A stretch of DNA of 64,000 nt from an uncultured Gammaproteobacteria bacterium (GCA_964360965.1 CAYHYM010000001.1:8878-72877), one strand, 5' to 3'; shown: positions 12,120 through 51,862, counted from the first letter of the stretch. Numbers and translations are program-made. Notes: generated by a model not told the origin, from the sequence alone.

Positions 12120-12137
12120 TATTCCAGATTACGCTGT

Positions 12138-15164: not shown

Positions 15165-15178
15165 TATAAACCCTAAAA

Positions 15179-17013: not shown

Positions 17014-18067
17014 GGGACGTAAGTAATTTAGTCAAAAGCTCAGGTCTGATGGCAAATCGCAGGGCCACATCGGCTGAGATTTTACCAGCCTTAACCAAAG
17101 AGTTAAGCGATGTTTCCAGATTCATCATCCCCAGTTCGGCTGATGTTTGTATTAAATTATCAATCATATGGGTTTTTGCCTCCCTAATCATTGATCTGAC
17201 CGCAGCATTGGCAAAAAGAATCTCTTGAGCCAAAATCCTGCCCGGAGTCAAGGTTGGCACCAGCCGCAAGCATAAAATAGCCTCCAAAGTAGATGCCAGC
17301 TGCATCCTGATCTGTAGCTGCTGAGTTTGAGGAAAAACATCAATGATACGATCCACTGATTGGGCGGCAGAATTGGTATGTAAGGTGGCAAAAACCAGAT
17401 GCCCTGTTTCTGCGATGGTCATGGCAGAGGAAATGGTTTCCAAATCCCTCATCTCGCCAATTAACACCACATCCGGATCCTCTCGCAGAGCCGCGCGAAG
17501 CGCTCCAGCCCAGGACTTGGTATCATTGTACATCTCCCGCTGAGAAATTAGAGATTTGCCCTTTGGATAAACATATTCAATGGGGTCCTCAATAGTAATA
17601 ATGTGGGCAGCCCTATTTTGATTGATGGAATTTATAAAAGAGGCCAGAGCTGTTGATTTGCCATGGCCTGTTGGGCCGGTGATTAAAATAAAACCCTGGC
17701 GCAGCTCCGTCAGTTTTTCCACCACCTGAGGAAATCCCAATTCGGAGATGGCCGGAATTTTAAAAGGGATCAGGCGAAAAGATGCTGCCAGGTTTCCTTT
17801 TTGACGATAGATGTTAACCCGAAATCTGCCTTTTCCTTCAAAATCTATTGAGAAGTCAAGTTCCAGGTTTTGGGAGAAAGTTTGCTTTTGGGTCTCTGAC
17901 AAAATTGGGGTTAAAAAGCTGACCATCTCAGACGGAGCGATTACCTCTTCCCCTGGTATAGGGAAAAGCTCACCATGAACCCTTAAAATAGGAGGAAAAC
18001 CTACGGAAAGATGCAAATCTGAAGCTCCCCTGGCAATGGTTGTTTCCATTAGTTGTTGAATAGTCAT
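17006..18067 (-). CDS. pilT: twitching-motility retraction ATPase PilT
   Basis: Walker A GPTGHGKST. PilT-type HTNSAAQSVDRIIDVF. 353 aa. Confidence 0.85.
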   Translation of the reverse strand: MTIQQLMETTIARGASDLHLSVGFPPILRVHGELFPIPGEEVIAPSEMVSFLTPILSETQKQTFSQNLELDFSIDFEGKGRFRVNIYRQKGNLAASFRLIPFKIPAISELGFPQVVEKLTELRQGFILITGPTGHGKSTALASFINSINQNRAAHIITIEDPIEYVYPKGKSLISQREMYNDTKSWAGALRAALREDPDVVLIGEMRDLETISSAMTIAETGHLVFATLHTNSAAQSVDRIIDVFPQTQQLQIRMQLASTLEAILCLRLVPTLTPGRILAQEILFANAAVRSMIREAKTHMIDNLIQTSAELGMMNLETSLNSLVKAGKISADVALRFAIRPELLTKLLTSHG

Positions 18068-18075
18068 ATTTTTTC

Positions 18076-19788
18076 TTAATCCTGTGCGACTCTTAGCACC
18101 TCTTCCATGGTGGTAATTCCTTCCAAAACCTTTAAATATCCATCCTGTTTCATGGTGACCATGCCATCCTCAACACCCTGGCGTTCAATGTCTTGTGAGG
18201 AGGCATGCTCCAAAATTTTCCGGGAAATTTTTTCTGTTACCAGCAGCACTTCAAAAATACCGATTCTGCCCAGATATCCCATCTGAGCGCAATCTTGACA
18301 GCCTTGCGTTTTATAAAGTTTGATCTGACCATTTTTGGGCAGCAAGTTTCCCAAAACAGCTTTGATATTTTCCCAAACCTCAGGAGGAGCATCATATAAA
18401 ACTTTACATTTGGGACAAAGTTTTCTGACCACTCGTTGCCCCATCACTGCATTTAGGGCTGATGCCAAAAGAAACGGCTCCACCCCCATATCCAACAGCC
18501 TGGGAGCTGCGCCTGAAGAGGAATTGGTATGAACTGTGGAAAAAACCTGATGGCCGGTCAAGGCTGCCTGGATGGCCAGTTCAGCAGTTTCTGTATCTCT
18601 GATCTCACCCACCATCATTATATTGGGATCCTGACGCAAAAATGAACGCAGGGCTGAGGCAAAAGTTAAGCCTATTTGGGGATTGACCTGAACCTGATTA
18701 ACTCCGGGAATTTCATACTCAACCGGATCTTCAATGGTTAGGATATTAACTTTGGTGGTGGAAACTTTGGTCAGGATGGAGTAGAGGGTGGTGGTTTTGC
18801 CTGAACCTGTTGGTCCGCAGATTAAGATGATGCCATGAGGGCGAAGCAGCTGGGACCCTAAATTATTCAAAGACGAACCCCTCAGCCCCAGCTCCAGCAG
18901 GGTGGGGGCGCCTCCTGATTTAGGCAGTAGCCTCATCACCACTTTTTCCCCAAAAATGGTCGGCACTGTGGAGATACGTAGGTCAACTTCCTTCCCTTGA
19001 TAATCAAAAGAGAACCTGCCATCCTGCGGCAGCCTTTTTTCATCAATTTTTAAAACAGCCAGAATTTTAACCCTGGAGATCAGGGCATCATGTACCCCTT
19101 TGGGCAGAATTATTTTTTCCGACAGCACACCGTCAATTCTATAGCGGACCCGGGTTTTGTCTTCCTGTGGTTCAATATGGATGTCGGAAGCGCGGGTTTT
19201 GATGGCATATTCTAAAAGTTGATTGATGATATTGGCCACAGGCGCCTCGCGGATCACCTCAGGCGCCTCTTGAGCTTCCTCTTGCGGTTTAACCGAGGCC
19301 ACCTCTTTTAGGGCAGATGTCACCTCGGTAGTTAAACTTTGGGCATACTGGTTGGAAATGGCCTTTAAAATATCTGAAGTTAAGCCCAAAAAAGGCCTGA
19401 TCCTCATGCCTGATTTTTTCTCAATAAATTGGATCACCTGTATATCTAAAGGGTCTGCCATGGCCACCAGCAGTTGCCCATCTTTTTGGTCAAAAGCGAT
19501 CAGGATATAGCGGCGGGCCACTGCCTCAGGGATTAAATTTAGGATATTGGAAGCAATGGCCTGATCTTCCAGTAAGATATAGGGAACATTTAAAATTTGA
19601 GCTTTGGCCTGGGTTAGTTTATCAACAGGCACAAAATTATGTTCAAGAATTATTTTTTCGCTATTTTGGCCGGTGTTGATGCTTTCCAGCTTAATGGAAG
19701 AGAGTTGATCAGGAGTCAGAAGCCCCTGTTTAAATAGGATGTCCTCAATTAAAACATTATTTGATGAAGACTGGGCAGCCTGATCCAT
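18076..19788 (-). CDS. pilB: type IV pilus assembly ATPase PilB (GspE family)
   Basis: N-terminal GspII-like domain, Walker A GPTGSGKTTT, tetracysteine CPKC...CQDC. Confidence 0.85.
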   Translation of the reverse strand: MDQAAQSSSNNVLIEDILFKQGLLTPDQLSSIKLESINTGQNSEKIILEHNFVPVDKLTQAKAQILNVPYILLEDQAIASNILNLIPEAVARRYILIAFDQKDGQLLVAMADPLDIQVIQFIEKKSGMRIRPFLGLTSDILKAISNQYAQSLTTEVTSALKEVASVKPQEEAQEAPEVIREAPVANIINQLLEYAIKTRASDIHIEPQEDKTRVRYRIDGVLSEKIILPKGVHDALISRVKILAVLKIDEKRLPQDGRFSFDYQGKEVDLRISTVPTIFGEKVVMRLLPKSGGAPTLLELGLRGSSLNNLGSQLLRPHGIILICGPTGSGKTTTLYSILTKVSTTKVNILTIEDPVEYEIPGVNQVQVNPQIGLTFASALRSFLRQDPNIMMVGEIRDTETAELAIQAALTGHQVFSTVHTNSSSGAAPRLLDMGVEPFLLASALNAVMGQRVVRKLCPKCKVLYDAPPEVWENIKAVLGNLLPKNGQIKLYKTQGCQDCAQMGYLGRIGIFEVLLVTEKISRKILEHASSQDIERQGVEDGMVTMKQDGYLKVLEGITTMEEVLRVAQD

Positions 19789-22620: not shown

Positions 22621-23259
22621 ATGAAAAATTATTCCCCAATTTTATTTGAGGCCTATGATAAGTTTATGCTCTCCCTGGGGGGCAAAAAGATTCCCACTCC
22701 ATACAGGATAAATATTCCATATCAGAGCGATAGAAAAAAATATGGTAAATCTGATCCTGATACTTTAACAACAGATACCAGAAGGTTGGTCGTAGAGCGG
22801 AATTTTGATTTAAATAAAGCAACTGAGCAAGAAATAAGAAGTTTCATGGAAAAAAATATGCTGGGGATTGACTGTTCCGGATTTGTCTATCATCTGCTGG
22901 ATTATTTATTAAGACATACCAACAAGGGAGGCATGGAAAATATCGGTTTTCCTCCTGCCCAAAGAACCAATGTTTGGCTGTTAACTTCCAAGGAGTTCAC
23001 CATTCCTGTTGATGATCTAACCCATGCTTTGGCAGGGGATTTGATAAAATTAAACAGTGGGCAGGATCTTTTGCACTGCCTGATTGTTTTGGATCACCAA
23101 AATAGTATGATCACCTATACTCACTCTAGTAGATTTAACAAACCCAGTGGTATCCAAATTGGTAAAATAACTGAGGGAAAATTCCCAGATGATTTACAAG
23201 TTTTTTCCTATAATCCCAACAAGGGGGATGGCATTAGAAGGCTCAAAATGCTAAAATAG
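22621..23259 (+). CDS. NlpC/P60 (C40)-like cysteine peptidase domain protein
   Basis: GIDCSGFVYHLL resembles the C40 catalytic Cys motif, with a downstream His region. Confidence 0.45.
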   Translation: MKNYSPILFEAYDKFMLSLGGKKIPTPYRINIPYQSDRKKYGKSDPDTLTTDTRRLVVERNFDLNKATEQEIRSFMEKNMLGIDCSGFVYHLLDYLLRHTNKGGMENIGFPPAQRTNVWLLTSKEFTIPVDDLTHALAGDLIKLNSGQDLLHCLIVLDHQNSMITYTHSSRFNKPSGIQIGKITEGKFPDDLQVFSYNPNKGDGIRRLKMLK

Positions 23260-23263
23260 CTCA

Positions 23264-23902
23264 ATGGTAATTGAAAAAACGCCAGAAACTATGCCTACTT
23301 TGACTGTTCCTTATATCTCACAGAAAGATGATGAAACCAGCAATAGATATGGTAGAAGAGGGTGTGGATTAACGGCTTTGAGAATGGTGCTATCTTATTA
23401 TGGTAAGGATCTGGGCATGGAGGAACTAGACCAGCTAGTAGTAGAGACCCACGCTTATCAGCCAATGGAAGGCAAGGAGGAAATAGGCGGTTGGATTCAT
23501 GCAGGTATGACCAACATAGCTAGAAAAGTAGGACTCAGAGGATATAGAATCCATTATGGGATGCTTACTGAGCAAGATTTAATTAACTCTAAAGCTGTAT
23601 TTGAGGAAGAAGGAATGGGTGAGGAAGAGTTTAAGGACTTTAGTGAGAGCTTTGACCAAGCCAGAACAGAAGGTCCCATGTCTGATCTCTATCGTTTAAT
23701 TGATAAGGGCATTCCAGTGATTGCTTCAATGAAAAAATCTTATGCTAAAACTCTAGCTTCTCATATGATAGTTTTAATGGGCTATGGGGGTGATGAGTTA
23801 GTGGTTAATGACCCTTGGGAATTTGGACCAAATTATAAAGTTTCAGTTGATGAATTTAAGAAGCATTGGACTAATAGGGTAATCGTTATAAGCACTCCGT
23901 AG
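23264..23902 (+). CDS. peptidase C39-like (papain-fold) domain protein
   Basis: RRGCGLTALRMVLSYYG resembles the C39_2 catalytic Cys motif (CGPTSLAMVLSYYG-type). Confidence 0.5.
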   Translation: MVIEKTPETMPTLTVPYISQKDDETSNRYGRRGCGLTALRMVLSYYGKDLGMEELDQLVVETHAYQPMEGKEEIGGWIHAGMTNIARKVGLRGYRIHYGMLTEQDLINSKAVFEEEGMGEEEFKDFSESFDQARTEGPMSDLYRLIDKGIPVIASMKKSYAKTLASHMIVLMGYGGDELVVNDPWEFGPNYKVSVDEFKKHWTNRVIVISTP

Positions 23903-28608: not shown

Positions 28609-29529
28609 TCAACGATTATTCCCCGAATGAAATGCCTTATGCACATCCTTTAGATGAGCATTGGTGACATGGGTGTATATTTGGGTGGTTTGGATGTTGG
28701 AGTGACCTAACATTTCCTGCACTGAGCGGATATCGGCTCCATTTATCAGTAAATCCGTGGCAAAAGAATGCCTTAAGGTATGGGGGGTGGCTTTGACAGG
28801 AAGACCTAAAGCTTTAACATATTTTTCCACAATTCGCTCAATTGAGCGGGAAGTAAGCCTCATAGCCTCACCGCTGTTTTGGGCATCTATCTTACCCTGA
28901 TACCTGATAAAAAGAGGCTTGAGGGTATCTTTTCTTGCCATCAAGTATTTTTCCAAAAACTCAACTGCAGAATCAGATAAAAAAACTATCCTTTCTTTTC
29001 CACCTTTACCAACAACTCCAAACTCGCGTCTGTTAAGATTTATGGTGTCCCTGTTTAAAGAAGCCAGTTCAGAAACCCGCAGTCCTGTTGAAAAAAGCGT
29101 CTCCAGAATGGCCCTATCCCTTATGCCATCTTTTCTAGATGTATTCGGAGCATCAAGCAGTTGCTTAAGCGAAGCATCATCCAAAATCTTCAAAGGCCTT
29201 GGTTCTGCCTCTCCCAGTTCCACTTTTTCAGGGGATAAAGTTTGGATATCTTGGCGGGCTAAATATCTTAAAAATGCCCGCAGAGCTATCATAAAATAGT
29301 TTTGGGTGACTCTTTTTAAGGATCTTTTGGTCTTTGGATCCTGAAATCTTGCCAGATACAACCTGTATTTTCTGACCAAATTCAAATCTATATCTTTGGG
29401 ATCAATATCATTCGAAAACTGCAAAAATCGTTTTAGATAATGATCGTAGTTTTTAATGGTTAACTGAGAGGCATTCCTCTCCAGCTCCAGATATTCTAAG
29501 AAATCAGTAATTAAGGCAGATAGGTTCAT
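28609..29529 (-). CDS. xerC: tyrosine site-specific recombinase XerC/XerD-like
   Basis: R..HxxR..Y catalytic region HTLRHSFATDLLINGADIRSVQEMLGHSNIQTTQIYTHV. ATG overlaps the upstream gene stop as ATGA (29527-29531). Confidence 0.8.
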   Translation of the reverse strand: MNLSALITDFLEYLELERNASQLTIKNYDHYLKRFLQFSNDIDPKDIDLNLVRKYRLYLARFQDPKTKRSLKRVTQNYFMIALRAFLRYLARQDIQTLSPEKVELGEAEPRPLKILDDASLKQLLDAPNTSRKDGIRDRAILETLFSTGLRVSELASLNRDTINLNRREFGVVGKGGKERIVFLSDSAVEFLEKYLMARKDTLKPLFIRYQGKIDAQNSGEAMRLTSRSIERIVEKYVKALGLPVKATPHTLRHSFATDLLINGADIRSVQEMLGHSNIQTTQIYTHVTNAHLKDVHKAFHSGNNR

Positions 29530-30236
29530 CACAAAAGTGCCAGGCCTAAAATTCCCAGGATGGTTAAGATTGAACCTACTATGGCCAGGGCAAAGGTAAA
29601 CTGCTCTGTTCCTGCCGGGGGAAGAGCCTTTGGCGGCCCAACATAGGGAGCAGTAGTCCCTGAGGGTGTGGCCACACCAACACCAACTCCTGCTCCGGGC
29701 GCGCCAGCAGCGCAAGTGCCAGTCCCTATAGTATAATTTCCATTAACCACTGAGTTTAACACATCAGCCACTATATCCCCCCTTTGCACCACATTAGAAT
29801 CTGAAGTTTTACTTTTATCATTGGAGTCAAAGTCAAATTTAATCTGACTGGCGCCAGTTGGAGCATCATCTTTAACTTTAAACTTAATGCTGGCCAAAGT
29901 TCCAGAACCCAAAAAACCAGTCGTGACAGAGGCCAAGCCTGAAATGGAAACTTTACCGTTGGACTCATCAATGCTATTTCCCGGGTAATCTGCATAAATT
30001 GATCCCACTGACATGGATGAAGCGCTAAACCTGGAAGTATCATATAAAACTATGGCATCAGTGCCATCAGTTTGAACCCCGCCAGTATTTAAAACAATAT
30101 CCAATGAGAAGGTACAGCTTTTATTAAAGGTACCCGAGGAAGGGGACAAAGACAGGGTGGCAGTCTGGGCAAAGGCAACCGGGCTTAATATAATTGTTAT
30201 AAAAATTATAAAAATTATAATTACTATAGTCTTCAT
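29529..30236 (-). CDS. secreted cohesin-like domain protein with C-terminal LPPAG-TM anchor-like tail
   Basis: Signal peptide. Cohesin-like beta-sandwich segment ...AIVLYDTSRF...GTLASIKFKVKDDAPTG. C-terminus KALPPAGTEQFTFALAIVGSILTILGILGLALL. Confidence 0.5.
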   Translation of the reverse strand: MKTIVIIIFIIFITIILSPVAFAQTATLSLSPSSGTFNKSCTFSLDIVLNTGGVQTDGTDAIVLYDTSRFSASSMSVGSIYADYPGNSIDESNGKVSISGLASVTTGFLGSGTLASIKFKVKDDAPTGASQIKFDFDSNDKSKTSDSNVVQRGDIVADVLNSVVNGNYTIGTGTCAAGAPGAGVGVGVATPSGTTAPYVGPPKALPPAGTEQFTFALAIVGSILTILGILGLALL

Positions 30237-30787
30237 GGCAGAATATTTATCTCCAACTGATTAACTTTTTCCAAAATATCTGCTCCAGTGCCTGTTTCAG
30301 TCACATTAGTGTCCCCGGTTTTACCTGGGGTAAAGTCCAATGAAACTTTGGTTAATCCTACAGCTTTGGCCACAAATGTTACTGCAGCAAACTGACCCTC
30401 CGGTATAACTCCGCCTTGCTGGGTGGTAATACCGGAGACAGATACTCTTCCCAAAGTCGCGTCAACCTTATTTTGCGGATAATCGGAAAAAATGGTCCCC
30501 AATACTGTTGGCTGGGCTGTTAATAGTTTTGGGTCATAGGTAATTATCAAGTCCACCCCATCAACTTTTTTGGCCGAGGCGACATTTATAGTAACCAAAA
30601 TTCTCTCCCTCACCCTAAGCTGACTTTTATCAGCGGAGAGGCTGATGGAGGTTTGACTTGTAACAGGTACGGCAACAGTTGATGGAGGAGTTGGTTTAAC
30701 CAAAGACCATCCGGCCCACAAAACTTCTGCCAAAATTACCATACCCAGCACTATAAAAATGTTTCTTTTCACCAGATATTTTTGCAT
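30233..30787 (-). CDS. secreted cohesin-like domain protein
   Basis: Signal/anchor. Cohesin-like ...VDGVDLIITYDPKLLTA...QFAAVTFVAKAVGLTKVSLDF (compare FRYDPNVLEI and VFAKIRATVKS in clostridial cohesins). Confidence 0.5.
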   Translation of the reverse strand: MQKYLVKRNIFIVLGMVILAEVLWAGWSLVKPTPPSTVAVPVTSQTSISLSADKSQLRVRERILVTINVASAKKVDGVDLIITYDPKLLTAQPTVLGTIFSDYPQNKVDATLGRVSVSGITTQQGGVIPEGQFAAVTFVAKAVGLTKVSLDFTPGKTGDTNVTETGTGADILEKVNQLEINILP

Positions 30788-30806: not shown

Positions 30807-31109
30807 TCAACTGCCGAAGTCAAGGGCGGGCAGTTGAATTAAAGTCGCACCGGGTGAGGGGGAAGGTGATGGACTAACTTGTGCTGACGGAGAAGAGGAG
30901 GGGGCTGTTTCCTTGGTAATTTTTAATTTTACATTAGAGTTGGTAGTTTCTGTGATGACCTGACCTGTATCATTCACAAATTCCACCTTGGGGATAAAGG
31001 CTGCCCGAGGCCTAAAAATTTGGGTCTGACGTACCAAATACAAAGTAGCCGGAATAGCCACCAAGATAATTACAAAGCCTATTAAAATTAATGTTTGTCT
31101 TTTAGTCAT
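30807..31109 (-). CDS. truncated 5' paralog (100 aa) of the 31143-32411 gene; leader plus Pro-Ser linker only
   Basis: First 67 aa nearly identical to the next gene. Contains a 76-nt tract 100% identical to 32215-32291. Confidence 0.4.
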   Translation of the reverse strand: MTKRQTLILIGFVIILVAIPATLYLVRQTQIFRPRAAFIPKVEFVNDTGQVITETTNSNVKLKITKETAPSSSPSAQVSPSPSPSPGATLIQLPALDFGS

Positions 31110-31142
31110 TAACTTACCCCCTTATAGATTAACCGACTCTTT

Positions 31143-32411
31143 CTACAGTGTCAACCTTTTACTTGTTCTCATCACATTATCAAAGTCTCCATGGATATCC
31201 CACCAATTTCTCAATTTTTTACCCTGATATGTTTTAGTGTTATTTTTTCCCGGCATGTTTTGCAGCATCCAAATTTGATAATTCAGTGCAGAGTTATTAT
31301 TTATCGGATCTATATCCTGACAACCCCAAATTTGACAACTAATATCTGTCAGCTGACCTAAAGTATCCGGATTCCAATCCAGACAATCAGATTTTTGGGG
31401 GGTTGGATTATTCCTGTCATATTCTGATCTGGCATTTGGTGGATTGTGCGCTGAACCGCACCTGCCATTCACCCCCAAAGTCTGCGGGAAATTTGGTCCC
31501 TGGAATTTATCTCTGTATAAACTTTTATCAACAGCATCAATTTCTGCCTCTATTTGATGTCCCCAAGACTCCAAAGCTTCTGCAGTAAACCTTTGATAAT
31601 TAAATGTGTACACACGATAAGTATTTGCACAAATTGGCATATCATTCTCTCCGCCGCTATTTGAGATATCCCCAAACGGCCCTGACATTTTTGATTCATA
31701 AATATCAAGATAGGGGTGACTGTCTGCTTTTGGCGAACCCTGATAACCCCAAAGCCATACCTCTTTTACCCCCTTACTGTCAACATAGTCGCAAATGTTG
31801 TGAGTTTGCATGATGCCCCGGTAGTCAGGGTAGGTTGGTTTATCCAACCGGGCTTTAATCGGTACTGCCTGCAGGTATTCTTTGGTATCAACGATTGTAT
31901 AACGGAGAACCGGTTTTGCATTCGGATCTTTATATCCCAAATATGTGCTGGCTTTCTCCAAAGATATTTTGAGCTGGCTGGTCACATCATCAGTTCTTTT
32001 TTTGATCAGTTCATATGAATCACCAATATCTCCTGTCACAGTAATATCAATACACTGCTGTTGGGGATTTAAGGAACAGGGAACAGAAGGAAAATATTTA
32101 ATCAGCAACACATTTATATTAAAACTTGTATCCAAGCCTGGTTGGAAAGTTGGAGAAGGGGATGGAGATGAAATTTGTGTGGGAGAAGGACTAGGAAAAG
32201 TTGTCACTGCTTCTTTGGTAATTTTTAATTTTACATTAGAGTTGGTAGTTTCTGTGATGACCTGACCTGTATCATTCACAAATTCCACCTTTGGAATAAA
32301 AGCTGCTCTGGGTTTAAAAATCTGAGTCTGCCTGACCAGATACATGGTGGCAGGAATGGAAATAAGAATAATGACGAAGCCTATGAGAATAAGTATTTGT
32401 TTTTTCGTCAC
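31143..32411 (-). CDS. secreted protein: conserved leader, Pro-Ser linker, C-terminal Cys-containing domain of unknown function
   Basis: Leader MTKKQILILIGFVIILISIPATMYLVRQTQIFKPRAA, linker SPSPTQISSPSPSPT, then a 300-aa domain with no assignable family. Confidence 0.5.
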   Translation of the reverse strand: MTKKQILILIGFVIILISIPATMYLVRQTQIFKPRAAFIPKVEFVNDTGQVITETTNSNVKLKITKEAVTTFPSPSPTQISSPSPSPTFQPGLDTSFNINVLLIKYFPSVPCSLNPQQQCIDITVTGDIGDSYELIKKRTDDVTSQLKISLEKASTYLGYKDPNAKPVLRYTIVDTKEYLQAVPIKARLDKPTYPDYRGIMQTHNICDYVDSKGVKEVWLWGYQGSPKADSHPYLDIYESKMSGPFGDISNSGGENDMPICANTYRVYTFNYQRFTAEALESWGHQIEAEIDAVDKSLYRDKFQGPNFPQTLGVNGRCGSAHNPPNARSEYDRNNPTPQKSDCLDWNPDTLGQLTDISCQIWGCQDIDPINNNSALNYQIWMLQNMPGKNNTKTYQGKKLRNWWDIHGDFDNVMRTSKRLTL

Positions 32412-32428
32412 TTTTCACTTTTCCCTTA

Positions 32429-34306
32429 TCACTTTAACAATATGCTGGCCGTTTGAGGAGGTATTGGTCCCCAAGCGCCACTTTCAAAAAACTGCACATA
32501 CGCTGACTTTAATCCTGGTCCACCTGTTAAAGTCAGATCCAAAGTGAAAACTGTTGCTGTACCCATATCACTTTGGGCTAAAACAGTGGCAAAATTAGGA
32601 TCAAAGGAAACCCTGAAAGGCAGCAGGCCTGAAGGCACAGCAGAGGCGGTGGCTGTGGGGGAGGCTGAAGAAGTTGCCACCGGCGAGGCAGATGCAGTTG
32701 CCACAGGTGATGCGGCAGGACCACCTACAGGGGGTTCTTTTGGTAGAGGGGGAGAGAACTGCTCATCAGATTGGTTGATATTCTGCCTCATACAGGCATA
32801 ATCAATGGAATTAATCCTGCCATCCCCATTAAAATCACCTGTTTTGACCACGTCTTTTACCAAACTCCACTGGCGGGTTAATTCTGCCCGATCAAAAGCA
32901 TTTATTTTTCCATCAGCCTTGATGGCTGGAGCAATATCACCAACCAGCAAAGTTACAGCCTCCAAATTCTTGGTACCGGTTTTGGTTTCAAATTCCACTT
33001 TTTTAGAGAGGGTATTGGGTGCTTTAATAACCAGGGCATACTTTTTATTTTTCTCCAGCTTTGGTGTAAAACCTGTCACTTTGCCATCTTTGTCCAGTTT
33101 GACTGTTTGTTCCAGAACCGGCTCCGGGTTTTCCGACTCGGCGCTGACCAGTACATTGGCAAAAATCTTCACTAACACATTATCCACTGCCAAATTCCCG
33201 CCAGCGCTCTTACATTGGGTTAGAGCGGCAAAGGTGACAGTGGTAGTGCCCACCGAACAGTCGGCTCTGGCAGTTTTGCTGTCATCACGGGTCAGCTCCA
33301 CATCATTTTTGCCTTCCAATTTTTTATCCAAAATAGCTGTCACCACCCCTGTTGATTCATTCCAACTCAAAACTTCCGCATCAGTTCCACCCACCTTAAC
33401 TTTGCCTTTACCTTTGGGGCCAATATTGGTACCGGTGATGGTGATGCTGGTACCGGATCCGGAAATGGCATGAGTACAGCTGGCCTCAGAAATAGCAGGA
33501 TTGGGGATAAAGTTGATCATCCGATCTCTTCTTGAAATAACACCAGTATTTGATATAAAGAGGGCATGAATAGTATTTCTGCCAGGTTTGGTTAAGGTAT
33601 GGGGTATCAGCTTGGGATGAGTATCATAAAGTTGAGCGCCTTTATCTGCGCAAGAGGTAGCAGTAATTGGCCCTTTATCAGATATAAAGAAACAGGCAGT
33701 AGAAACAGGTGGAGTTGGGGATGGTGATGGGCTAGGTGATGGACTGGGACTTGGTGAAGGTGAAGGAGACGGTGAAGGAGACGGAGCCTGGTTGACTGTC
33801 AGGGCAGAAGGGGAAACAGACAGGGTTTCCAATGATAAATCTGATTTAACATTTTTCAGCAAGGAGGTATTCAGTATATCAATGCCATACTGATTGGGGG
33901 ATTGGGATGTAAACACAAGTTCTACAAACGAGGTAGTAACTGCCGCAGGCAATGTAAAGCTGGCTGCGGTGTCCAATTCTCCAACCAGTTTAATCTGGCC
34001 GTTTAAATTGATCTGGGCCAGATTTTGGTCTCCATCGCCCTCCAATACATCAGATTTTTTGCCAACTTTGTAGGTAATGCTTTTCAGCTTAGCCTTAACT
34101 GGATCAAATTTAACATTAATTTGATACATCCTTATCTTTAAGGCGGCAGTTGAAGTAAGCTGAGCATTGACTGTGAAATCCTGCCCTGCCGGCGCTACCA
34201 AGGCAGGCGGATTAAATGAGGAAGAAACTGTCTGGCCAAATGCGGCCCTGGGCAAGCCTAGTGTAGCAAGTAACAATAAAATAATAACAGTAAATTTTCT
34301 TTTCAT
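32429..34306 (-). CDS. large secreted protein with cohesin-like modules, (SP)n linker, Ig-like region and dockerin-like repeat
   Basis: Signal peptide ending PRAAFGQ. (SP)x20 linker. Dockerin-like loop DFNGDGRINSIDYACM plus KADGKINAFDRAEL. Confidence 0.55.
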   Translation of the reverse strand: MKRKFTVIILLLLATLGLPRAAFGQTVSSSFNPPALVAPAGQDFTVNAQLTSTAALKIRMYQINVKFDPVKAKLKSITYKVGKKSDVLEGDGDQNLAQINLNGQIKLVGELDTAASFTLPAAVTTSFVELVFTSQSPNQYGIDILNTSLLKNVKSDLSLETLSVSPSALTVNQAPSPSPSPSPSPSPSPSPSPSPSPTPPVSTACFFISDKGPITATSCADKGAQLYDTHPKLIPHTLTKPGRNTIHALFISNTGVISRRDRMINFIPNPAISEASCTHAISGSGTSITITGTNIGPKGKGKVKVGGTDAEVLSWNESTGVVTAILDKKLEGKNDVELTRDDSKTARADCSVGTTTVTFAALTQCKSAGGNLAVDNVLVKIFANVLVSAESENPEPVLEQTVKLDKDGKVTGFTPKLEKNKKYALVIKAPNTLSKKVEFETKTGTKNLEAVTLLVGDIAPAIKADGKINAFDRAELTRQWSLVKDVVKTGDFNGDGRINSIDYACMRQNINQSDEQFSPPLPKEPPVGGPAASPVATASASPVATSSASPTATASAVPSGLLPFRVSFDPNFATVLAQSDMGTATVFTLDLTLTGGPGLKSAYVQFFESGAWGPIPPQTASILLK

Positions 34307-34311
34307 ACTTT

Positions 34312-35238
34312 TTAACGCTTCCAGATATTCAAATCATCAGCGTCTATTTGACCGTCACCGTCAAAATCAGGGTTAACAGAGACAGGTATTTTACCTAAGT
34401 TTACCGCAGTCAGCCAGTAAAGATAATCATTTTCATCTTTCACTCCGTTACCATCAGCATCACCTAGGGTTCTTGATGGTCTGTTGCACCAGCTATTTTT
34501 ATCCTGGGTAGAGGGCACAATGTTGTAGATAGTTGCCGGAAGAGAACATTGTATCGGACCGCTTCCAGGAGGTAGTCCGTAATCTACCCCTGTCAGTTTG
34601 GTAAACTGGCAAGGAGAGGAGCAGCTGTTATCGGCTTGACACCCACATCCTGTCACAGGCGGGAGCGGAGAAGGCGAAGGAGAAACAGCAGGCCCTGTCA
34701 CCATATATCTCCCTTCAATGTTTTCTGCAGTTATTAAAGTTGTTTCCGCTCCGGAGGCCACCAGTTCAAAGGCAGGGGCAAACCTGACAGTTGATACCCC
34801 TCCTGCCCTGGCCTTAAACTTGAGCGTTCCCAAAATCAGAACTCCTGAAGAGATGGGATCTTTCGACTTTCTTACAGCAGTAAAGCGGAACTGGCCCAAG
34901 GGATCATCCACAGTATTTCTTAAAGTGTCAAAACTTGAAAGAGCAGGGTCAAATGTGACAAGCTGTAAGATATTTGTGTTGTAGGCAAGCTGTATGTTTA
35001 CTCCGGTAATATCCTGGTTTCGTGCATTCATCTTCAGCTGCACCTCAAATTCTTCTCCCGTATTTTTGCTGGATTCAGCAGGAGAGAGAGACAGTGTTAC
35101 TGCGCCAGTAGGCACCGCAGCCCTACTTCTTAGGTCCTGAATCTGCCTGACCAGATATAAAGTTACTGGTATGGCCACAATCAGAATAGCCACTACCATA
35201 AACGGTATAATTTTTATCAATTTATCTCTATCTATCAT
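34312..35238 (-). CDS. cohesin-like + Pro-Ser linker + type I dockerin protein
   Basis: Leader ...VTLYLVRQIQDLRSRAA. Cohesin-like core. C-terminal dockerin pair DADGNGVKDENDYLYWL and DFDGDGQIDADDLNIWK, with Ca-loop D/N at positions 1, 3, 5, 9, 12. Confidence 0.6.
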   Translation of the reverse strand: MIDRDKLIKIIPFMVVAILIVAIPVTLYLVRQIQDLRSRAAVPTGAVTLSLSPAESSKNTGEEFEVQLKMNARNQDITGVNIQLAYNTNILQLVTFDPALSSFDTLRNTVDDPLGQFRFTAVRKSKDPISSGVLILGTLKFKARAGGVSTVRFAPAFELVASGAETTLITAENIEGRYMVTGPAVSPSPSPLPPVTGCGCQADNSCSSPCQFTKLTGVDYGLPPGSGPIQCSLPATIYNIVPSTQDKNSWCNRPSRTLGDADGNGVKDENDYLYWLTAVNLGKIPVSVNPDFDGDGQIDADDLNIWKR

Positions 35239-36809
35239 AGGTAACCATTTTTCCAGATACTGAAATCCACGGTATTGATTGAGTCGTCGCAGTTGAAGTC
35301 TGCCTTTTTACTCTTGGTTAAGGAATGTAACTCCCTGAACCAGATGTTAAAGTCTGAAAGATCCACATCACCATCTTTGTCAGCATCACCCTGGGAGGGG
35401 ACACAAACCGCTGGTGTTGGGGAAGGGGAAGGAGAGGGAGAAGGGGAGGGGGAAACTGTAGGTTGAGGAGCTACACAAAAACCTCTATTTGGTTGATTGG
35501 CTTCACAAACAGGTTTTTGGGGGTCAACACAAAAAGAAGCATCTGTTTGACATTGACTGCCATGACATATCAGACAATCCCTAGCCTTGGAGGCTGAGAC
35601 GCATTGGGCATCAATACATTTATCTTTAAATTCCCTAAAATCAATTGACACCTTTCTTCTACATCTGTCATCCTCATCATCTTTGGTGGCTGCAAAATTA
35701 TCACAATTAGGATCTTCTGTCTGTGTTTTGGGGTTATTTCTACAAACTCCACACTGGCCAAAGTTATAGGTATTTAGGATGGGGGTAGTGGTAGTTACAC
35801 AGGCAAAACAAGATTGGCCTGAAACAGCACAAGTCAGCTGGCTGGCTGGAACCCCTTGATAAGCCGGGGTATCAGAAGATGAAAGGCAACCAATAGTACC
35901 GGCTGGTTGGCACTGATATGTCCTTTCAGCTCCAAAAAGATTGCCTGCGGATACTCCCACAGGACAAGTGGGAACACCTAGGGCCCCACCGGGTAGGGTG
36001 GTAAAAACAATCAGACTAAGGTTACACTGCCCACCAAATTCCTGACTTTTATCATTAAACATTCTCCACCTGAAGGGATATGTCCCAGCAGTTGTGGGCC
36101 CAATTGTGACATTAAAGTCCTTTTGATTGCCTGGTTCAATTGTGCTACCTACACTAATATTGGTTTTATCTGGCTTGAATGCCAACTCAGCACCTGAACC
36201 ACCAGTGAATCTTAAGGAATAATTTGATTGCCAGTTGTTAGTAACACCCCCAGTAGGGTCTTGAGTATTTCTTAAAATCATGGTGATGTTATAAGATTTG
36301 TTAATCACAACAATACCAGGGTGTTTATCATAAGGTTGGCCATCAATGGTGACGTCTGTACAGTCTGCCCTGTCTGCACCACCCACACCTACATTGCCAG
36401 ATGAAGGTGAAGGTGGAGGTGGTGGTGGTGAGGCTGCAGCGGGACACTGCTTTGGTTCTGTACAACTGGAAGCATCACACTGCGGTTGATCACCTGGATC
36501 ATTAGGATCGGCCACACCGTCACTATTGATGTCCAGGGTGTTATCCGTATAAGTGGCAAAAGCCGTTAGATAACAACCGTTGGCATCTACAGATCCACAA
36601 CTACCAACCGGCTGACCAACTTGTGGCTGGTTTGGCCTATTACACGGGAAAAGACCATCTGGGGCAGGACTCATAATCTCTGCTGCCTTTGATTTAAGTT
36701 GAGTTTGTTGTTGGACCAGTCTTACTCCCACCAGAAGCCCCACAGCCAAAACCCCCAAAATCAACAGGGCAATGATATTTCTTTTAGATAATAATTTTGT
36801 TGCTTCCAT
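35235..36809 (-). CDS. Cys-rich secreted protein with Pro-Ser linker and C-terminal dockerin
   Basis: Leader ...VRLVQQQTQLKSKAA. PPPPPPSPSS and PSPSPSPSPSPTP linkers. Dockerin pair DADKDGDVDLSDFNIWF and DFNCDDSINTVDFSIWK. Confidence 0.55.
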   Translation of the reverse strand: MEATKLLSKRNIIALLILGVLAVGLLVGVRLVQQQTQLKSKAAEIMSPAPDGLFPCNRPNQPQVGQPVGSCGSVDANGCYLTAFATYTDNTLDINSDGVADPNDPGDQPQCDASSCTEPKQCPAAASPPPPPPSPSSGNVGVGGADRADCTDVTIDGQPYDKHPGIVVINKSYNITMILRNTQDPTGGVTNNWQSNYSLRFTGGSGAELAFKPDKTNISVGSTIEPGNQKDFNVTIGPTTAGTYPFRWRMFNDKSQEFGGQCNLSLIVFTTLPGGALGVPTCPVGVSAGNLFGAERTYQCQPAGTIGCLSSSDTPAYQGVPASQLTCAVSGQSCFACVTTTTPILNTYNFGQCGVCRNNPKTQTEDPNCDNFAATKDDEDDRCRRKVSIDFREFKDKCIDAQCVSASKARDCLICHGSQCQTDASFCVDPQKPVCEANQPNRGFCVAPQPTVSPSPSPSPSPSPTPAVCVPSQGDADKDGDVDLSDFNIWFRELHSLTKSKKADFNCDDSINTVDFSIWKNGYL

Positions 36810-36812
36810 ATT

Positions 36813-37211
36813 TTATATTCCAGGTGATGGTGATGGACTAGGTGATGGACTGGGACTTGGTGAAGGTGAAGGGCTTGGACTGGGGCTGGGAGACAGTGAT
36901 GGAGAGGGGGATGGGGATGGTGGGAGTGGCAAATTAATTCCTTCCTCAGATTTTAAGAAAGGTGAATCCAACACCACATTTATTTCAGAATCTGTAGATG
37001 TACATTCACCAACAGCCGGACAATTAACACCTGATTTTCCTTCTATTGCTCTAAAGGAGATCGGATCACCACCGGCTGCTTTGGATTTTAATTGCTGTTG
37101 GGTTTGGACCAGTTTAATCCCCAAAGGAATGGCCACAATCATAATGGCCAAAATCAAAAATGAAATGATGTTCTTCCTGGAAAAAAGACTGTTGTCTGAA
37201 GAATAATCCAT
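36813..37211 (-). CDS. short leader + (PS)n-only protein (possible truncated paralog)
   Basis: Leader ...GIKLVQTQQQLKSKAA, then (SP)x18 to the stop. The plus-strand ORF 36772-37206 is its antisense image. Confidence 0.4.
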   Translation of the reverse strand: MDYSSDNSLFSRKNIISFLILAIMIVAIPLGIKLVQTQQQLKSKAAGGDPISFRAIEGKSGVNCPAVGECTSTDSEINVVLDSPFLKSEEGINLPLPPSPSPSPSLSPSPSPSPSPSPSPSPSPSPSPSPGI

Positions 37212-37244: not shown

Positions 37245-38720
37245 TCAATCTGTTTTTAACTTGGTCAAATCTACAATCACAAAATCATGGGTCTGATGGA
37301 TAATCTTATATTTTTCCATGACTTGCTTTGTCTGATCATCAAGAGCCACAGACACATAATGGGTGGCCCCCAGCTTAATCAGCTCGGTCACACTCAGGTA
37401 AACAGAAGACCAGCCAGGTCGATCCAGCTGGTATAAAAAAGCGGTATTTCTCTCAAATGGAGCAATCACCCTGGCTTCTTTGGGTAAAATTTCTCTGGCC
37501 ACATCTCCAGCTTTCATAATCTCACCATGATTAATCTGATAAAAACCCCTCACCTGATACCAGCCAAAAGCAAAGGTTAGAGCAATCAAAGCTAAGGTAG
37601 CAGGAATGGTGATCCAGGCAGTCAACCATCTGCCGGAGGCAAAAATTAGAAAATCTACTGAGCGGGCCATAAACACAGCCAAAATCGGCACCAGGGGAAT
37701 CTGATAATAATCATGTTCCACATTGCCGCGAGCCAAAATCAGCACATATAAACTTAAACCCAGCAGCCACCAGTGGAAAAACCAGGTTTGACCTTGTTTC
37801 GGCTTCAAAAATACTCCCAGGGTAGCCAGGAAAAAACCAGCCACAGTTAAAATTTCCCTGCCCAGTCTTTCTGCAATAATCCAATGTAAGAAAGCTCCTT
37901 TGTAGCGGATGTTGTCACCATTAAAAAGCCAGGCGGCAGAAGGGATGCCTTCAGGATATTGCAGCATCCATAAACGCCATGATAACAGAGGTACAGTGGT
38001 CAAAGCAACCAGCAGATACAGCTTAAGGTTAGTCAGGGCCCGCAATCCCCGGTAATGGAAAGATAAATATGCCATCGGCATCAATAGATAAAGCGTGTAT
38101 GGTTTGGTGAGAATGGCCACATTCAAAAACAACACAGTCAAAACAAAAAAAAACCAGGTTTCTTTTTCCAAAAACCTGATAAAAAAATAAAGGGCTGACA
38201 AAGAGGCAAAGATCATCATCGGCTCCGGCATAAACACTCTGGAGAAATAAATATTATACGGTAAAAAGGCCAAAAAGAGAGCTGAGATAAGAGCAACCCT
38301 GATCCCTAAAAATTTTTTGACCAGAAGATAAAGGAGAATAATTGACAAAAGTGAGAAAACAACTGACATTTGCCGGCCATAGATTACCTCCACCTGTCCC
38401 ATGATCAGATATACCACTGCCACCAGACCGCTATAGATGGGAAATTCCACAAAGCGGAAACGCTGCGGGTTGGGACGGGAATCGTGGGTAACAGGAGCCA
38501 TGTCATCATATTTAGGATGCAAAAAATCAAAGCCTTCTTTGATAAAATTTCTGGACACAGCTGCCGTGTCAACCTGCCTCCAGGAATGCCAGTCACCCAG
38601 GGGAATGTTGATCCGGTACTGGCGGATCCAAAAGGCCCCAATTAAAATGATTATCAAAAAGAGCAGGGGACTGGAAAAAACCTTTTTAAGTACCATAAAG
38701 CCATTATAGCAGCAAGACAA
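37245..38720 (-). CDS. GT-C fold glycosyltransferase (PMT_2 / ArnT-like, family 39/83-type), polytopic
   Basis: About 12 TM helices. First extracytoplasmic loop carries acidic YDD...PQRFRFVEFPIYSG. Topology and size typical of protein O-mannosyl/ArnT-like transferases. Confidence 0.55.
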   Translation of the reverse strand: MSCCYNGFMVLKKVFSSPLLFLIIILIGAFWIRQYRINIPLGDWHSWRQVDTAAVSRNFIKEGFDFLHPKYDDMAPVTHDSRPNPQRFRFVEFPIYSGLVAVVYLIMGQVEVIYGRQMSVVFSLLSIILLYLLVKKFLGIRVALISALFLAFLPYNIYFSRVFMPEPMMIFASLSALYFFIRFLEKETWFFFVLTVLFLNVAILTKPYTLYLLMPMAYLSFHYRGLRALTNLKLYLLVALTTVPLLSWRLWMLQYPEGIPSAAWLFNGDNIRYKGAFLHWIIAERLGREILTVAGFFLATLGVFLKPKQGQTWFFHWWLLGLSLYVLILARGNVEHDYYQIPLVPILAVFMARSVDFLIFASGRWLTAWITIPATLALIALTFAFGWYQVRGFYQINHGEIMKAGDVAREILPKEARVIAPFERNTAFLYQLDRPGWSSVYLSVTELIKLGATHYVSVALDDQTKQVMEKYKIIHQTHDFVIVDLTKLKTD

Positions 38721-39788: not shown

Positions 39789-40598
39789 CTATCCTATCCA
39801 GGAAGTTGTTAAAAATGCTACCATAAAAACAGCCATCCCAATAATCAGGTATTCCCATATTACTCTCCTATTCAACCTGTTTTTTAACCATCCTGTCAAA
39901 AGTCCCAGTAAAACATACATGGAAGAAGAAACAGCCAGGGAAAACATCGGGGCTTTGATCGGCCAAAAGGAAAAAGCTAAAGCCAGCTCCCCCAAAACCA
40001 AACTTAAAATAAATGTCTGTCCCAAAATTGCAGTCCCCATACTATCCTCCATCTCCTGAGCCCAAATAAATTGCATGATCAGGGGAAAGCTGATCACAAA
40101 AACAAATCCTCCATTTGCCCAAAATGGCAAATTAAAAGCAGCCAGTACATTTATGATAAAAAAAGCAGTTATCAGGGTAAATAAAAAATTGGCTGTTGAA
40201 GCAGCGCGGTACAAAGGTATGGTCCTTAATGATGCCACATTAAAGACATTTTGAGAAAGCAGAAGTAAATAAAAAGTCAGACCAAAAAAAAGTCCTACAG
40301 GCAGCCTAGTAAGCCAGCGCACAGGCAGTAAGAAATAAAAGGAGGCCACAGCCAAAGCATAAAGCGTGGGCAAGATCAAAAGTACCACTGCTTTGATGGG
40401 ACTTAGTCCCTCCCAAAGAGCCCACAAAGACAAAAAATAAGCGCTGAGCGCAAGTCCTGCTATAAAGCGAAATCTTAAGTCAAAATCAACCAGTTGGGTG
40501 GAAAAAAGGCCCAAAGTTAAAAGTATGGAAGATATGATAATTTTCTGACGTTTGGTTAAATTTAGATTCATTTTGCTGCCATCTTCAACACATGACAA
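39789..40598 (-). CDS. hypothetical polytopic membrane protein
   Basis: Seven or more hydrophobic helices. No recognisable family. Confidence 0.35.
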   Translation of the reverse strand: MSCVEDGSKMNLNLTKRQKIIISSILLTLGLFSTQLVDFDLRFRFIAGLALSAYFLSLWALWEGLSPIKAVVLLILPTLYALAVASFYFLLPVRWLTRLPVGLFFGLTFYLLLLSQNVFNVASLRTIPLYRAASTANFLFTLITAFFIINVLAAFNLPFWANGGFVFVISFPLIMQFIWAQEMEDSMGTAILGQTFILSLVLGELALAFSFWPIKAPMFSLAVSSSMYVLLGLLTGWLKNRLNRRVIWEYLIIGMAVFMVAFLTTSWIG

Positions 40599-41179: not shown

Positions 41180-41848
41180 TTATTCCAAAATAAGATGTTC
41201 AATCAGTTTTAATTTTCTTTGATAGTCAGCTTGATCAAATACAAAATGTTTATATTTTTCCCTGCTTCCAAACATATCCAACACTAAATTTGGTTCTAAA
41301 AAACCATCATTACCAGTAAGATAATTTGAAAAGGATGACCACGGATACTTTTCTAATTCACCAACAGTTCTAACTATAAAATTTGTATAAGGATTTAGGT
41401 GTATATATCTTGAAACATGAATAAACTGTTCATCAGTCTCTATCCTCTTGGCTTTAAATTGATCTAAAAATAAGGAGCCGTCCCGTTCATTCCTGGTATT
41501 ATGATAACGAGTATAACTATTTTGGAAATTACCTATAAATTTTGAAATACCATCCTCCATTTTCTGCTTTAACAAGAAATGAAAATGATTGGGCATTAAA
41601 CAAAAACAAATAATATCAACTAATTTTTCTGCCTGGTTCGTAATTTTGGTAATCTCTTTTTGTTTATCTTGTTCCAACTCCAAAAATTTAGATAATCTAA
41701 TAGGTGGGCTTGAAACTCTATAAAATTCAATTGCCAAAATTGCCCTTTGGTATTCTTTTTTTGTGGTAAAGGTGGGTTGCTTATTTATACCTCTGTTGTA
41801 AACATGGTAGATCTCATCCGTTACAAGTGGAATTTTTCTACCTGGCAT
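41180..41848 (-). CDS. REP-associated tyrosine transposase (RAYT) paralog
   Basis: HuH motif LMPNHFHFLLK. Tyr region SRYIHLNPYTNFIV...YPWSSFSNY. About 50% identical to the 11442 copy. Confidence 0.8.
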   Translation of the reverse strand: MPGRKIPLVTDEIYHVYNRGINKQPTFTTKKEYQRAILAIEFYRVSSPPIRLSKFLELEQDKQKEITKITNQAEKLVDIICFCLMPNHFHFLLKQKMEDGISKFIGNFQNSYTRYHNTRNERDGSLFLDQFKAKRIETDEQFIHVSRYIHLNPYTNFIVRTVGELEKYPWSSFSNYLTGNDGFLEPNLVLDMFGSREKYKHFVFDQADYQRKLKLIEHLILE

Positions 41849-51502: not shown

Positions 51503-51862
51503 CTATTTTGACATTTTCTTAGAACAAGAAAGGCACAAAGTAGCTGTGGGCATGGCCAGCAGCCTGGCTGTTTCAATATGCTTGGGGCATTTTAAACAAT
51601 GGCCATAAGTGCCATTTTTAATCCTGAAAAGTGCCTCTTTTACATCCTGGGCAAAAGTTTTAAGACCTGCTACCAAAGCAATAGTTCTCAAATGAGCCTG
51701 AGCCAAAAAAGACTCTGTCCCCAACTCAGTGGTTTCGGCAACAGAGGGAAGCTTAAGCGGATCCTCTTTTTCCACGGTTTGCAAGTTTTTCCTGACCTCC
51801 TTTTGACGGGCCAACAGCATTCTTTTAATATTATTTAAAGTTTTTTGGGGTAGTTCTAACAT
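51503..51862 (-). CDS. DksA/TraR-family C4 zinc-finger protein
   Basis: C-terminal CLKCPKHIETARLLAMPTATLCLSC four-Cys motif after a coiled-coil region. Confidence 0.55.
   Translation of the reverse strand: MLELPQKTLNNIKRMLLARQKEVRKNLQTVEKEDPLKLPSVAETTELGTESFLAQAHLRTIALVAGLKTFAQDVKEALFRIKNGTYGHCLKCPKHIETARLLAMPTATLCLSCSKKMSK

Follow-up and report, generated by a model that had tools for sequence, protein, structure and literature searches.

The 64,000-nucleotide stretch analysed here (the window) carries, at positions 30807-37211, a minus-strand operon encoding surface proteins. Pfam recognises cohesin, dockerin, TIG and Ig-like domains in the cluster proteins, several of which also have long (Ser-Pro)n linkers. 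Five open reading frames (ORFs) of this operon, 30807, 31143, 34312, 35235 and 36813, all on the minus strand, begin with the same kind of leader, composed of a basic n-region, a hydrophobic helix of about 21 residues and a polar box. On the sequence evidence, this leader is a previously unmodelled, lineage-specific export signal of Daviesbacteria-type bacteria of the candidate phyla radiation (CPR), extending well beyond the five genes. Judged by GyrA of the window, which shares 76-81% identity with many proteins named Candidatus Daviesbacteria, the source organism is a Daviesbacterium (Microgenomates group, CPR/Patescibacteria). A groundwater metagenome contig from Hainich (0.1-µm filter) contains an identical gene. 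Other parts of the window encode GyrB/GyrA, RuvC, Lgt and, in one operon, a type IV pilus that includes PilD and pilins bearing the canonical GFTLVELL.

Five leader genes and the anatomy of the leader

In the five leaders, the helix contains A-I-P-x-G/T and is directly followed by a box reading (Y/R/K)LV(R/Q)Q(T/Q)Q(I/Q)(F/L)(K/R)(S/P)(K/R)A. A six-frame regular-expression scan of the 64-kb window confined the box to these five N-termini, and a hidden Markov model (HMM) of the leader scored them at E 1e-13 to 9e-20 (Table 1). The ORFs, the scan and the HMM agree with the preliminary description of this DNA, in which five cluster proteins were said to share a basic N-terminus, a helix and a conserved box.

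Genes 30807 and 31143 have in common a recent 204-nt duplication, which spans the first 68 codons of 30807 (82% DNA identity), while the other three leaders are 25-48% identical to these two, with the identity concentrated at motif positions. Up to the proposed cleavage site (↓), the full N-termini read MTKKQILILIGFVIILISIPATMYLVRQTQIFKPRA↓A for 31143-32411, MIDRDKLIKIIPFMVVAILIVAIPVTLYLVRQIQDLRSRA↓A for 34312-35238, MEATKLLSKRNIIALLILGVLAVGLLVGVRLVQQQTQLKSKA↓A for 35235-36809 and MDYSSDNSLFSRKNIISFLILAIMIVAIPLGIKLVQTQQQLKSKA↓A for 36813-37211, the last continuing into a 2-Cys mini-module and an (SP)n tail. Pfam places a Cohesin domain at residues 53-147 of the 34312-35238 protein, and N_BRCA1_IG and Dockerin_1 domains in the 35235-36809 protein. 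The protein 30807-31109 is identical to a public protein (P0024), and a conserved 85-aa orthologue of its gene (P0006) adjoins cohesin genes in 11 contigs. The NCBI gene call for 31143 (P0166, 400 aa) begins at the internal Met23 (MYLVRQTQ...) and thereby loses most of the leader, an instance of how automatic annotation can mask the signal.

We counted leader positions from the terminal Ala (-1) in 165 sequences, with the residue counts at each position being out of 163-165. The block from -34 to -1 was ungapped in 163 of the 165 sequences. Ahead of it stand L/F at -37/-36 and S/T/N at -35, followed by the n-region (-34: K120/R25; -33: K109/R48; -32: N98/Q33), an aliphatic core at -31 to -20 and a set of in-membrane positions (-19: A130/S18/G14; -18: I132; -17: P158; -15: G73/T65/S14/A11). 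The remaining positions were Y87, or R/K/N, at -13; L164 at -12; V104/A40 at -11; Q85/R59/K17 at -10; Q145 at -7; I104/Q39 at -6; L91/F66 at -5; K116/R31 at -4; S110/P46/G8 and T1 at -3; K76/R73 (K/R in 149) at -2; and A165 at -1, where the anchoring regular expression demanded Ala, yet every sequence had it in register.

The hydrophobic core spans about 21 residues (-31 to -11) at fixed length and is followed by a c-region of 10 residues. The box does not lie 10-15 residues beyond the helix, as had been proposed; it begins in the last helix residues (L-12, V-11), and the terminal Ala alone lies about 10 residues past the core. The conservation of the box is real, but the conserved unit proved larger than described, namely the ungapped 34-residue block K-K-N...A-I-P-x-G...L-V-x-Q-x-Q...(S/P)(K/R)A, which includes the n-region and in-membrane positions.

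At -1 the information content is 3.8 bits; at +1 it has dropped to 1.1 bits, and by +3 to less than 0.5. Pro was found in 0/165 sequences at +1 and 0/165 at +2, compared with 9.8% over +1..+60, and in 47/165 at +4. Mean net charges were +1.4 for the n-region and +2.7 for the box; over the stretch +1..+15 the value was -1.1. An AlphaFold2 (AF2) model of the 36813 protein, built from a shallow alignment with a mean predicted local distance difference test (pLDDT) score of 61 (transmembrane (TM) part, 79-85; box, 62), gave a single helix over residues 8-42, ending just before S-K-A.

Table 1. Positions of the leaders, their genes and neighbouring genes in the window (↓, proposed or likely cleavage site)
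Feature	Position	Strand	Remarks
Leader, residues 1-36 of 100-aa protein 30807-31109	31002..31109	-	MTKRQTLILIGFVIILVAIPATLYLVRQTQIFRPRA↓AFIPK; HMM E 3.5e-17
Leader, residues 1-36 of 422-aa protein 31143-32411	32304..32411	-	...IPATMYLVRQTQIFKPRA↓AFIPK; E 5.2e-16
Leader, residues 1-40 of 308-aa cohesin protein 34312-35238	35119..35238	-	...VAIPVTLYLVRQIQDLRSRA↓AVPTGAVTLSLSP; E 9.8e-14
Leader, residues 1-42 of 524-aa Ig/dockerin protein 35235-36809	36684..36809	-	...LLVGVRLVQQQTQLKSKA↓AEIM; E 7.4e-15
Leader, residues 1-45 of 132-aa protein 36813-37211	37077..37211	-	...VAIPLGIKLVQTQQQLKSKA↓AGGDPISF; E 8.7e-20
Small gene	30807..31109	-	leader, ~28-aa beta module (FIPKVEFVNDTGQVITETTNSNVKLKITKE), Pro/Ser tail
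Gene with uncharacterised cargo	31143..32411	-	leader, beta module, Pro/Ser linker, uncharacterised 320-aa domain (starts ..DTSF/NINVLLIKYFP)
Gene with ordinary signal peptide	32429..34306	-	MKRKFTVIILLLLATLGLPRAAFG↓Q; cohesin-like, TIG and dockerin domains
Two cohesin proteins without the box	29529..30787	-	
Cohesin protein	29529-30236	-	classical signal peptide, C-terminal LPPAGTEQ and TM segment
Cohesin protein	30233-30787	-	plain N-terminal TM anchor, Pro/Thr spacer
PMT_2-type polytopic membrane glycosyltransferase	37245..38720	-	PF13231, E 1.8e-13; adjoins the array
DUF5656-like polytopic membrane protein	39789..40598	-	weak Pfam match, E 1.4e-4; no His or Cys
Lgt	51831-52733		encoded in the window

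Distribution and cargo of the leader

We searched a 44-position leader profile exhaustively against 1.84 billion cluster representatives (50% identity clusters). This superseded an initial profile search of a word-indexed database, which had returned fragments of at most 86 aa and served the motif, not the cargo. The profile matched 1055 clusters at E ≤ 1e-3, 69 of which also passed E ≤ 1e-10. Every one of the 150 matches listed was N-terminal, in proteins of 49-1461 aa, and the motif stood in register in all 165 retrieved sequences. The 78 members of at least 180 aa contained at least 28 Pfam families, with Dockerin_1 on 22, TIG on 11 and cohesin on 4; further cargo included a subtilase with an I9 propeptide, an M64 peptidase, and pectate-lyase-like, CBM and BNR domains. 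An extra TM-like segment occurred in three of the 78 cargo proteins, in none of them at the C-terminus.

The leader and the protein behind it vary independently. The 31143 protein and two relatives (P0170/P0182) were 60-62% identical in the mature part and 25-28% identical in the leader, while non-homologous proteins had leaders 31-58% identical and mature parts at background level. On these comparisons, the leader is a modular cassette, portable across unrelated extracellular proteins. The idea of a conserved, lineage-specific N-terminal signal was thus borne out by its presence on non-homologous extracellular proteins in all these clusters and families, whereas its assignment to one protein family was not, the signal being found on many.

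A recent duplication of neighbouring genes, with no constraint specific to the signal, would account for the 204-nt repeat of 30807 and 31143 and for the tandem arrays in which leader genes occur. The number of clusters at 50% identity, the unrelated mature domains of 28 Pfam families and the 31-58% identity of leaders on non-homologous proteins, concentrated at fixed motif positions, argue against it. We regard simple paralogy as refuted by the cluster breadth, the Pfam diversity and the leader versus mature identities, and give it next to no weight. Restriction of the motif to recently duplicated genes, named earlier as an outcome that would speak against a dedicated signal, was not observed; its occurrence is far wider.

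Scanning metagenomes for TQIFKP[KR]A yielded 28 loci, all from groundwater-type projects, in which the leader genes form co-oriented tandem arrays of up to seven genes (in locus L009). Leader genes were also present in the complete Daviesbacteria genome CP066688.1 (source of L036). Loci L001, L016, L019 and L036 had the gene order RuvC - DUF5656 - leader genes - large protein - cohesin - cohesin - XerC ... GyrA, and L035 and L037 had part of it (cohesin-cohesin-XerC-GyrA).

The cargo domain of 31143 (31146-32114) had 293 homologues (in CPR, Saccharimonadales and Actinobacteria, e.g. Catenulispora) and belonged to no Pfam family. Its AF2 model reached a pLDDT of 97.4, with invariant H186, Q187, E189, E191 and six Cys. 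A fold search gave no significant PDB match, the best being the TACE/ADAM17 catalytic domain (E 0.014, TM-score 0.3). Sequence and model together suggest that the domain may represent an undescribed family of secreted hydrolases.

In many proteins, including 36813-37211 and 30807-31109, a mini-module of about 30-40 aa stands right after the leader and is followed by a Pro/Ser tail. It occurs in a two-Cys form, x-P-I-x-F-x-G-x-G-V-x-C-x(4-6)-C-T-T-T...I-E-L-E-L-T-S-P-F-G-P-P, and in a Cys-free form, FIPKVEFVDxxGxxITETxxxNVKLxI. Several genes encode leader, mini-module and Pro/Ser tail and nothing more, and AF2 modelled the module as a weak beta-hairpin (E62-66, E69-72).

Another conserved type of leader was seen in the homologues P0175, P0179 and P0191, the last named Daviesbacteria. 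It consists of a hydrophobic core and ..S(S)xFDFK(D/N)KLF(S/G)xLFPKP(S/P)SxA↓ directly before the domain, and it was not found in the window. From these sequences, the lineage may use more than one class of leader with a long c-region.

The invariant alanine and possible processing of the leader

Homologues of the 31143 mature domain, which starts (D)PTDTSY, have three kinds of N-terminus: classical signal peptides, plain anchors and box leaders. The classical sites read ..NSVQA↓ATTTNTSY, ..SSKA↓AVSTQTSY and, in Actinobacteria, ..AAA↓QTADPTQTSY; box leaders abut the domain as ..QKTQIFKSKA↓DVDPTDISY, ..QRQQSLKSKA↓SAAVGASGSY and ..AVNLWPRA↓TVDPTDTSY. The box Ala coincides with the classical cleavage sites in these homologues, while plain anchors are separated from the domain by spacers of 15-100 residues. 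Cohesin paralogues behaved similarly: classical sites (..VAFA↓QTA-TLSLSP, ..AYA↓QTA-SLSLSP) and the box Ala (..RSRA↓AVPTG-AVTLSLSP, ..QSRA↓DVD-SVTLSLSP, ..KPRA↓TGEVV-VFTLNP) alike stand 3-7 residues before the first beta-strand.

Typical of type I signal peptidase (SPase I) substrates are small residues at -3/-1, a P1' position free of Pro and net negative charge early in the mature part (PMC10269814). The swap tests in two unrelated cargo families, together with the residues at -3/-1, the exclusion of Pro, the acidic mature start and the scarcity of further TM-like segments in the cargo, point indirectly to the Ala as a cleavage site. We favour, at somewhat better than even chances, a specialised signal peptide of the Sec type that has a long, helical c-region and would be cleaved after the invariant Ala. 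Dockerin-bearing cargo and anchored cohesins in the same operon fit release followed by capture. The earlier proposal that the box marks a dedicated recognition or cleavage site thus receives indirect support from the swap tests as far as cleavage after Ala is concerned; searches of the window and 34 related loci turned up no dedicated enzyme for recognition or processing.

Several observations weigh against cleavage. The hydrophobic core of a typical signal peptide measures 7-15 residues, and that of the leader, at about 21, is of TM length. The 10-residue c-region is long and strongly basic (+2.7 compared with +1.4 in the n-region), which is unusual in a translocated segment, and 28% of the leaders have Pro at -3, a residue disfavoured there by von Heijne's rule. 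In both cargo families, plain-anchor homologues show a similar spacing between the TM helix and the first domain (15-25 residues), so that the swap test is also compatible with an uncleaved anchor; the argument that such homologues always carry long linkers was weakened, as some linkers are only 15-20 residues long. The place where the search profile ended partly favours the fall in conservation past the Ala, although the downstream sequences do belong to different families. Classical signal peptides occur in the same operon, with no known difference in fate.

A less probable, still serious alternative is an uncleaved type II signal-anchor. The leader would then stay in the membrane, with the Q-rich basic box serving as a juxtamembrane stalk that tethers surface proteins, perhaps with helix-helix association via A-I-P-x-G. 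This would suit the fixed-length core of 21 residues with its Small-xxx-Small and Pro motif, the one continuous AF2 helix and the charge of the box, which could bind anionic lipid or wall polymers. It would also suit the homologues that present the same cargo on plain TM anchors with 15-25-residue spacers, and the ordinary cleavable signal peptides of the operon suggest a different fate for the leader. An anchor does not account as well for Ala at -1 in all 165 sequences (required by the regular expression), the small residue at -3, the absence of Pro from +1 and +2 with the abrupt conservation drop there, or the match of the Ala with classical cleavage sites in two cargo families. Moreover, cohesin or catalytic domains begin 2-8 residues past the Ala and, if uncleaved, would lie beneath the wall, and the dockerins on 22 of 78 cargos are typical of released subunits.

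We judge it slightly favoured that the leader acts as a lineage-specific secretion cassette of Candidatus Daviesbacteria and related Microgenomates, placed before many unrelated extracellular proteins. The basic n-region (..F-S-K-K-N) and the 21-residue helix would insert N-in via the Sec pathway, and the polar box (Y-L-V-x-Q-x-Q-I-F/L-K) would prolong the helix by about 10 residues past the membrane, as predicted by the AF2 model with moderate confidence. At (S/P/G)-(K/R)-Ala the helix would end, and an enzyme resembling type I signal peptidase would cut after the Ala. The cut would free the cargo, and dockerin-bearing cargo could be captured by the membrane-anchored cohesin proteins of the operon.

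Sequence conservation is not required for generic Sec targeting. Since the fixed length, the in-membrane Small-xxx-Small and Pro motif (A-I-P-x-G/T) and the conserved n-region exceed generic Sec needs, these sequence features point to a further, specific interaction, such as one with a certain peptidase, sorting site or holdase, comparable in kind to YSIRK or SipW-cognate signals. No SPase I homologue was found in the window and the 34 related loci (about 288 kb) with an approximate B. subtilis SipS query serving as a probe only, and no recurrent protease or other candidate partner gene was seen in the neighbourhoods of leader genes. Peptidase_C39_2 (23264-23902) was dropped as a partner, the leaders having no double-glycine motif and the gene being unlinked to the arrays. 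The DUF5656-like protein flanks the leader-gene array beside RuvC in the window, L001, L016, L019 and L036, which are close relatives only; it was judged unlikely to be a protease, as it has no His or Cys.

It is doubtful that the leader serves as substrate tag for an as yet unrecognised, dedicated N-terminal sorting system of Microgenomates, in which a specific membrane enzyme or assembly site would read K-K-N / A-I-P-x-G / L-V-x-Q-x-Q-...-K-A. If true, each cell would have dozens of surface proteins processed or positioned by such a system, namely those of the cohesin-dockerin adhesion apparatus. It would form an N-terminal counterpart to sortase/exosortase and serve an apparatus that episymbiont-like bacteria may use for host contact.

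More improbable is a tag for a dedicated enzyme other than SPase, mirroring at the N-terminus the tripartite signals of sortase and exosortase; its cut would fall either within the membrane, close to A(-19)↓I-P, or behind the dibasic K-x-K/R. The conserved n-region and in-membrane positions (K-K-N, small -19, Pro -17, G/T -15) are not read by generic SPase I and would be explained in this way, as would the architecture mirroring C-terminal sorting signals. The DUF5656 protein flanks the arrays in every syntenic Daviesbacteria locus, and precedents exist in SipW for TasA (PMC10269814) and in myxosortase (PMC11980579). On the other side, no candidate was found in the window or the neighbourhoods, the DUF5656 protein lacks His and Cys and is syntenic among close relatives only, and the pattern of small, basic and Ala residues with Pro exclusion is closer to what a type I peptidase would cut than to a site within the membrane. 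Cleavage at A(-19)↓I-P formally fits the -3/-1 rule but would lie mid-membrane, and was retained solely under this alternative.

Locus setting and comparison with known signals

Gene 32429 carries an ordinary signal peptide among the leader genes, so that two signal classes occur in one operon. Its cleavage site is likely AFG↓Q, since the orthologue in L001 has ..AVLA↓QSSAS. The string PRAAF, previously reported at the end of this signal peptide, does exist; its likeness to the box looks coincidental, as it is missing from the L001 orthologue (MKFLKIIFLLFILLSSLAVKAVLAQSSAS).

The two cohesins without the box (29529 and 30233) are likely anchored receptors for dockerin cargo. The LPPAGTEQ helix of 29529-30236 has no basic tail, and the corresponding strings are LPEAGSEQ in L001 (10850-11599) and LPPAGSET in L016 (~14536-15201 region). 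Going by these sequences, the LPxAG-type C-terminus is a conserved candidate sorting or anchoring signal; a sortase was not identified nearby. The PMT-type gene beside (Ser-Pro)n proteins, together with glycosyltransferase genes in related loci, suggests the PMT_2 protein as a candidate O-glycosylase of the (SP)n linkers. In L021, L030 and L033, several large genes for membrane glycosyltransferases or O-antigen-ligase-like proteins lie upstream of the leader genes.

Several further observations concern the locus and its relatives. L001 (CAYNFQ010000007.1), the single locus returned by a genome scan with a narrow leader pattern, bears the label "uncultured Gammaproteobacteria bacterium", yet is syntenic with the window; the label is probably wrong, being contradicted by GyrA, whose named relatives are all Daviesbacteria. 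The GyrA of the window has no intein domains, unlike some Microgenomates relatives (P0312, P0371, P0393, P0405 and P0407; about 1260-1350 aa, with PF14890/PF14528). Between gyrB and gyrA (22621-23902, plus strand), an NlpC/P60-like gene is paired with the stand-alone Peptidase_C39_2 gene; the pair also occurs in L036 and showed no connection with the leader. The series of pilin genes is interrupted by an IS200/Y1-type transposase gene (11442-12119), and a second copy of this type lies at 41180-41848.

CPR/Patescibacteria make up a large, almost uncultured share of bacterial diversity and are presumed to attach to host cells by means of their surface proteins. The leader HMM offers a direct listing of the secreted and surface proteome in Daviesbacteria-type genomes, where many such proteins are "hypothetical" and some have mis-called starts, and the leader can be used in phylogenetic profiling for the enzyme that reads it. 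The operon documents very different signal classes side by side. Generic predictors trained on model organisms may misclassify such a signal, with its long, basic, helical c-region, as a membrane anchor. A dedicated partner, if one exists, would mean a new protein-sorting pathway.

With the leader alone as query, nothing in Pfam or NCBIfam matched at a threshold as lax as E ≤ 10, chance TM similarities staying far below the cut-offs, and no description of the leader was found in the open-access literature, literal motif strings included. The leader had been called distinct from class III, YSIRK and lipobox signals, and this was upheld, also with regard to Tat and KxYKxGKxW signals: their defining residues are missing from the leader, and none of their models matched at E ≤ 10. 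The leader also appears distinct from SipW-cognate signals, whose model was likewise unmatched. No Cys occurs in any leader column, as the lipobox L-x-x-Cys would need, and the Tat motif S/T-R-R-x-F-L-K is absent, the n-region reading K-K-N or K-R-N with no Tat model match.

Processing of the leader as a class III (prepilin-like) signal by PilD of the window deserves mention because a complete type IV pilus operon is present (3744-19788, minus strand), with PilB, PilT, PilC, PilD (14310-15164), PilM/N/O-like proteins and at least eight pilin-like genes with GFTLVELL. As in type IV prepilins, a conserved N-terminal hydrophobic helix with a Pro kink precedes a variable C-terminal part, and the genes stand in tandem. 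Unlike prepilins, the leader has no G↓F-x-x-x-E ahead of the helix; -32 is Asn or Gln instead of Gly (or Ala/Ser), there is no Glu at +5, and the conserved site follows the helix. The genuine pilins of the window read GFTLVELL, and the prepilin N-terminal model was unmatched even at E ≤ 10, so we consider this route extremely unlikely.

The C-terminal tripartite signals LPXTG/sortase, PEP-CTERM/exosortase and MYXO-CTERM/myxosortase likewise combine a signature motif at the outer membrane face with a TM helix and a basic cytoplasmic stub, and serve dozens of diverse cargos per lineage from clustered genes. The leader differs from them in being N-terminal (mirrored) and in that no cognate enzyme was found in the window or the related loci; its cleavage would release the cargo, not attach it. 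With class I Sec signals it shares a basic n-region, with K/R at -34 and -33 in more than 95% of leaders, a hydrophobic core and a polar c-region, S/G-x-A in 72% of leaders, no Pro at +1, an acidic early mature region and an Ala at the classical sites of homologues. In contrast to ordinary signal peptides, it is conserved over 34 ungapped positions, with a core of about 21 residues compared with 7-15, a helical, basic c-region of 10 residues compared with 3-7, and Pro at -3 in 28%.

The SipW-cognate signals of TasA/TapA (Bacillus), which have a dedicated endoplasmic-reticulum-type peptidase and are poorly processed by the general one, resemble the leader in forming a subclass of signal peptides with conserved residues round the cleavage site. 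The AFIPK subfamily of the window shares with TasA an aromatic P2', which hampers LepB (PMC10269814). The leader has no sequence similarity or NCBIfam match to these signals and a far broader cargo range; neither the window nor the 34 loci (~288 kb) revealed a SipW-like gene. The Gram-positive YSIRK-G/S and KxYKxGKxW signals are also lineage-restricted motifs within Sec-type peptides on many unrelated surface proteins, and are thought to steer the site or route of secretion. Their motifs lie in the n/h region only and their models were unmatched, whereas the leader is conserved in the n-region, the core and the post-helix box. By analogy, the leader appears functionally closest to these motif-bearing Sec signal peptides, namely the YSIRK-G/S, KxYKxGKxW and SipW-cognate TasA types.

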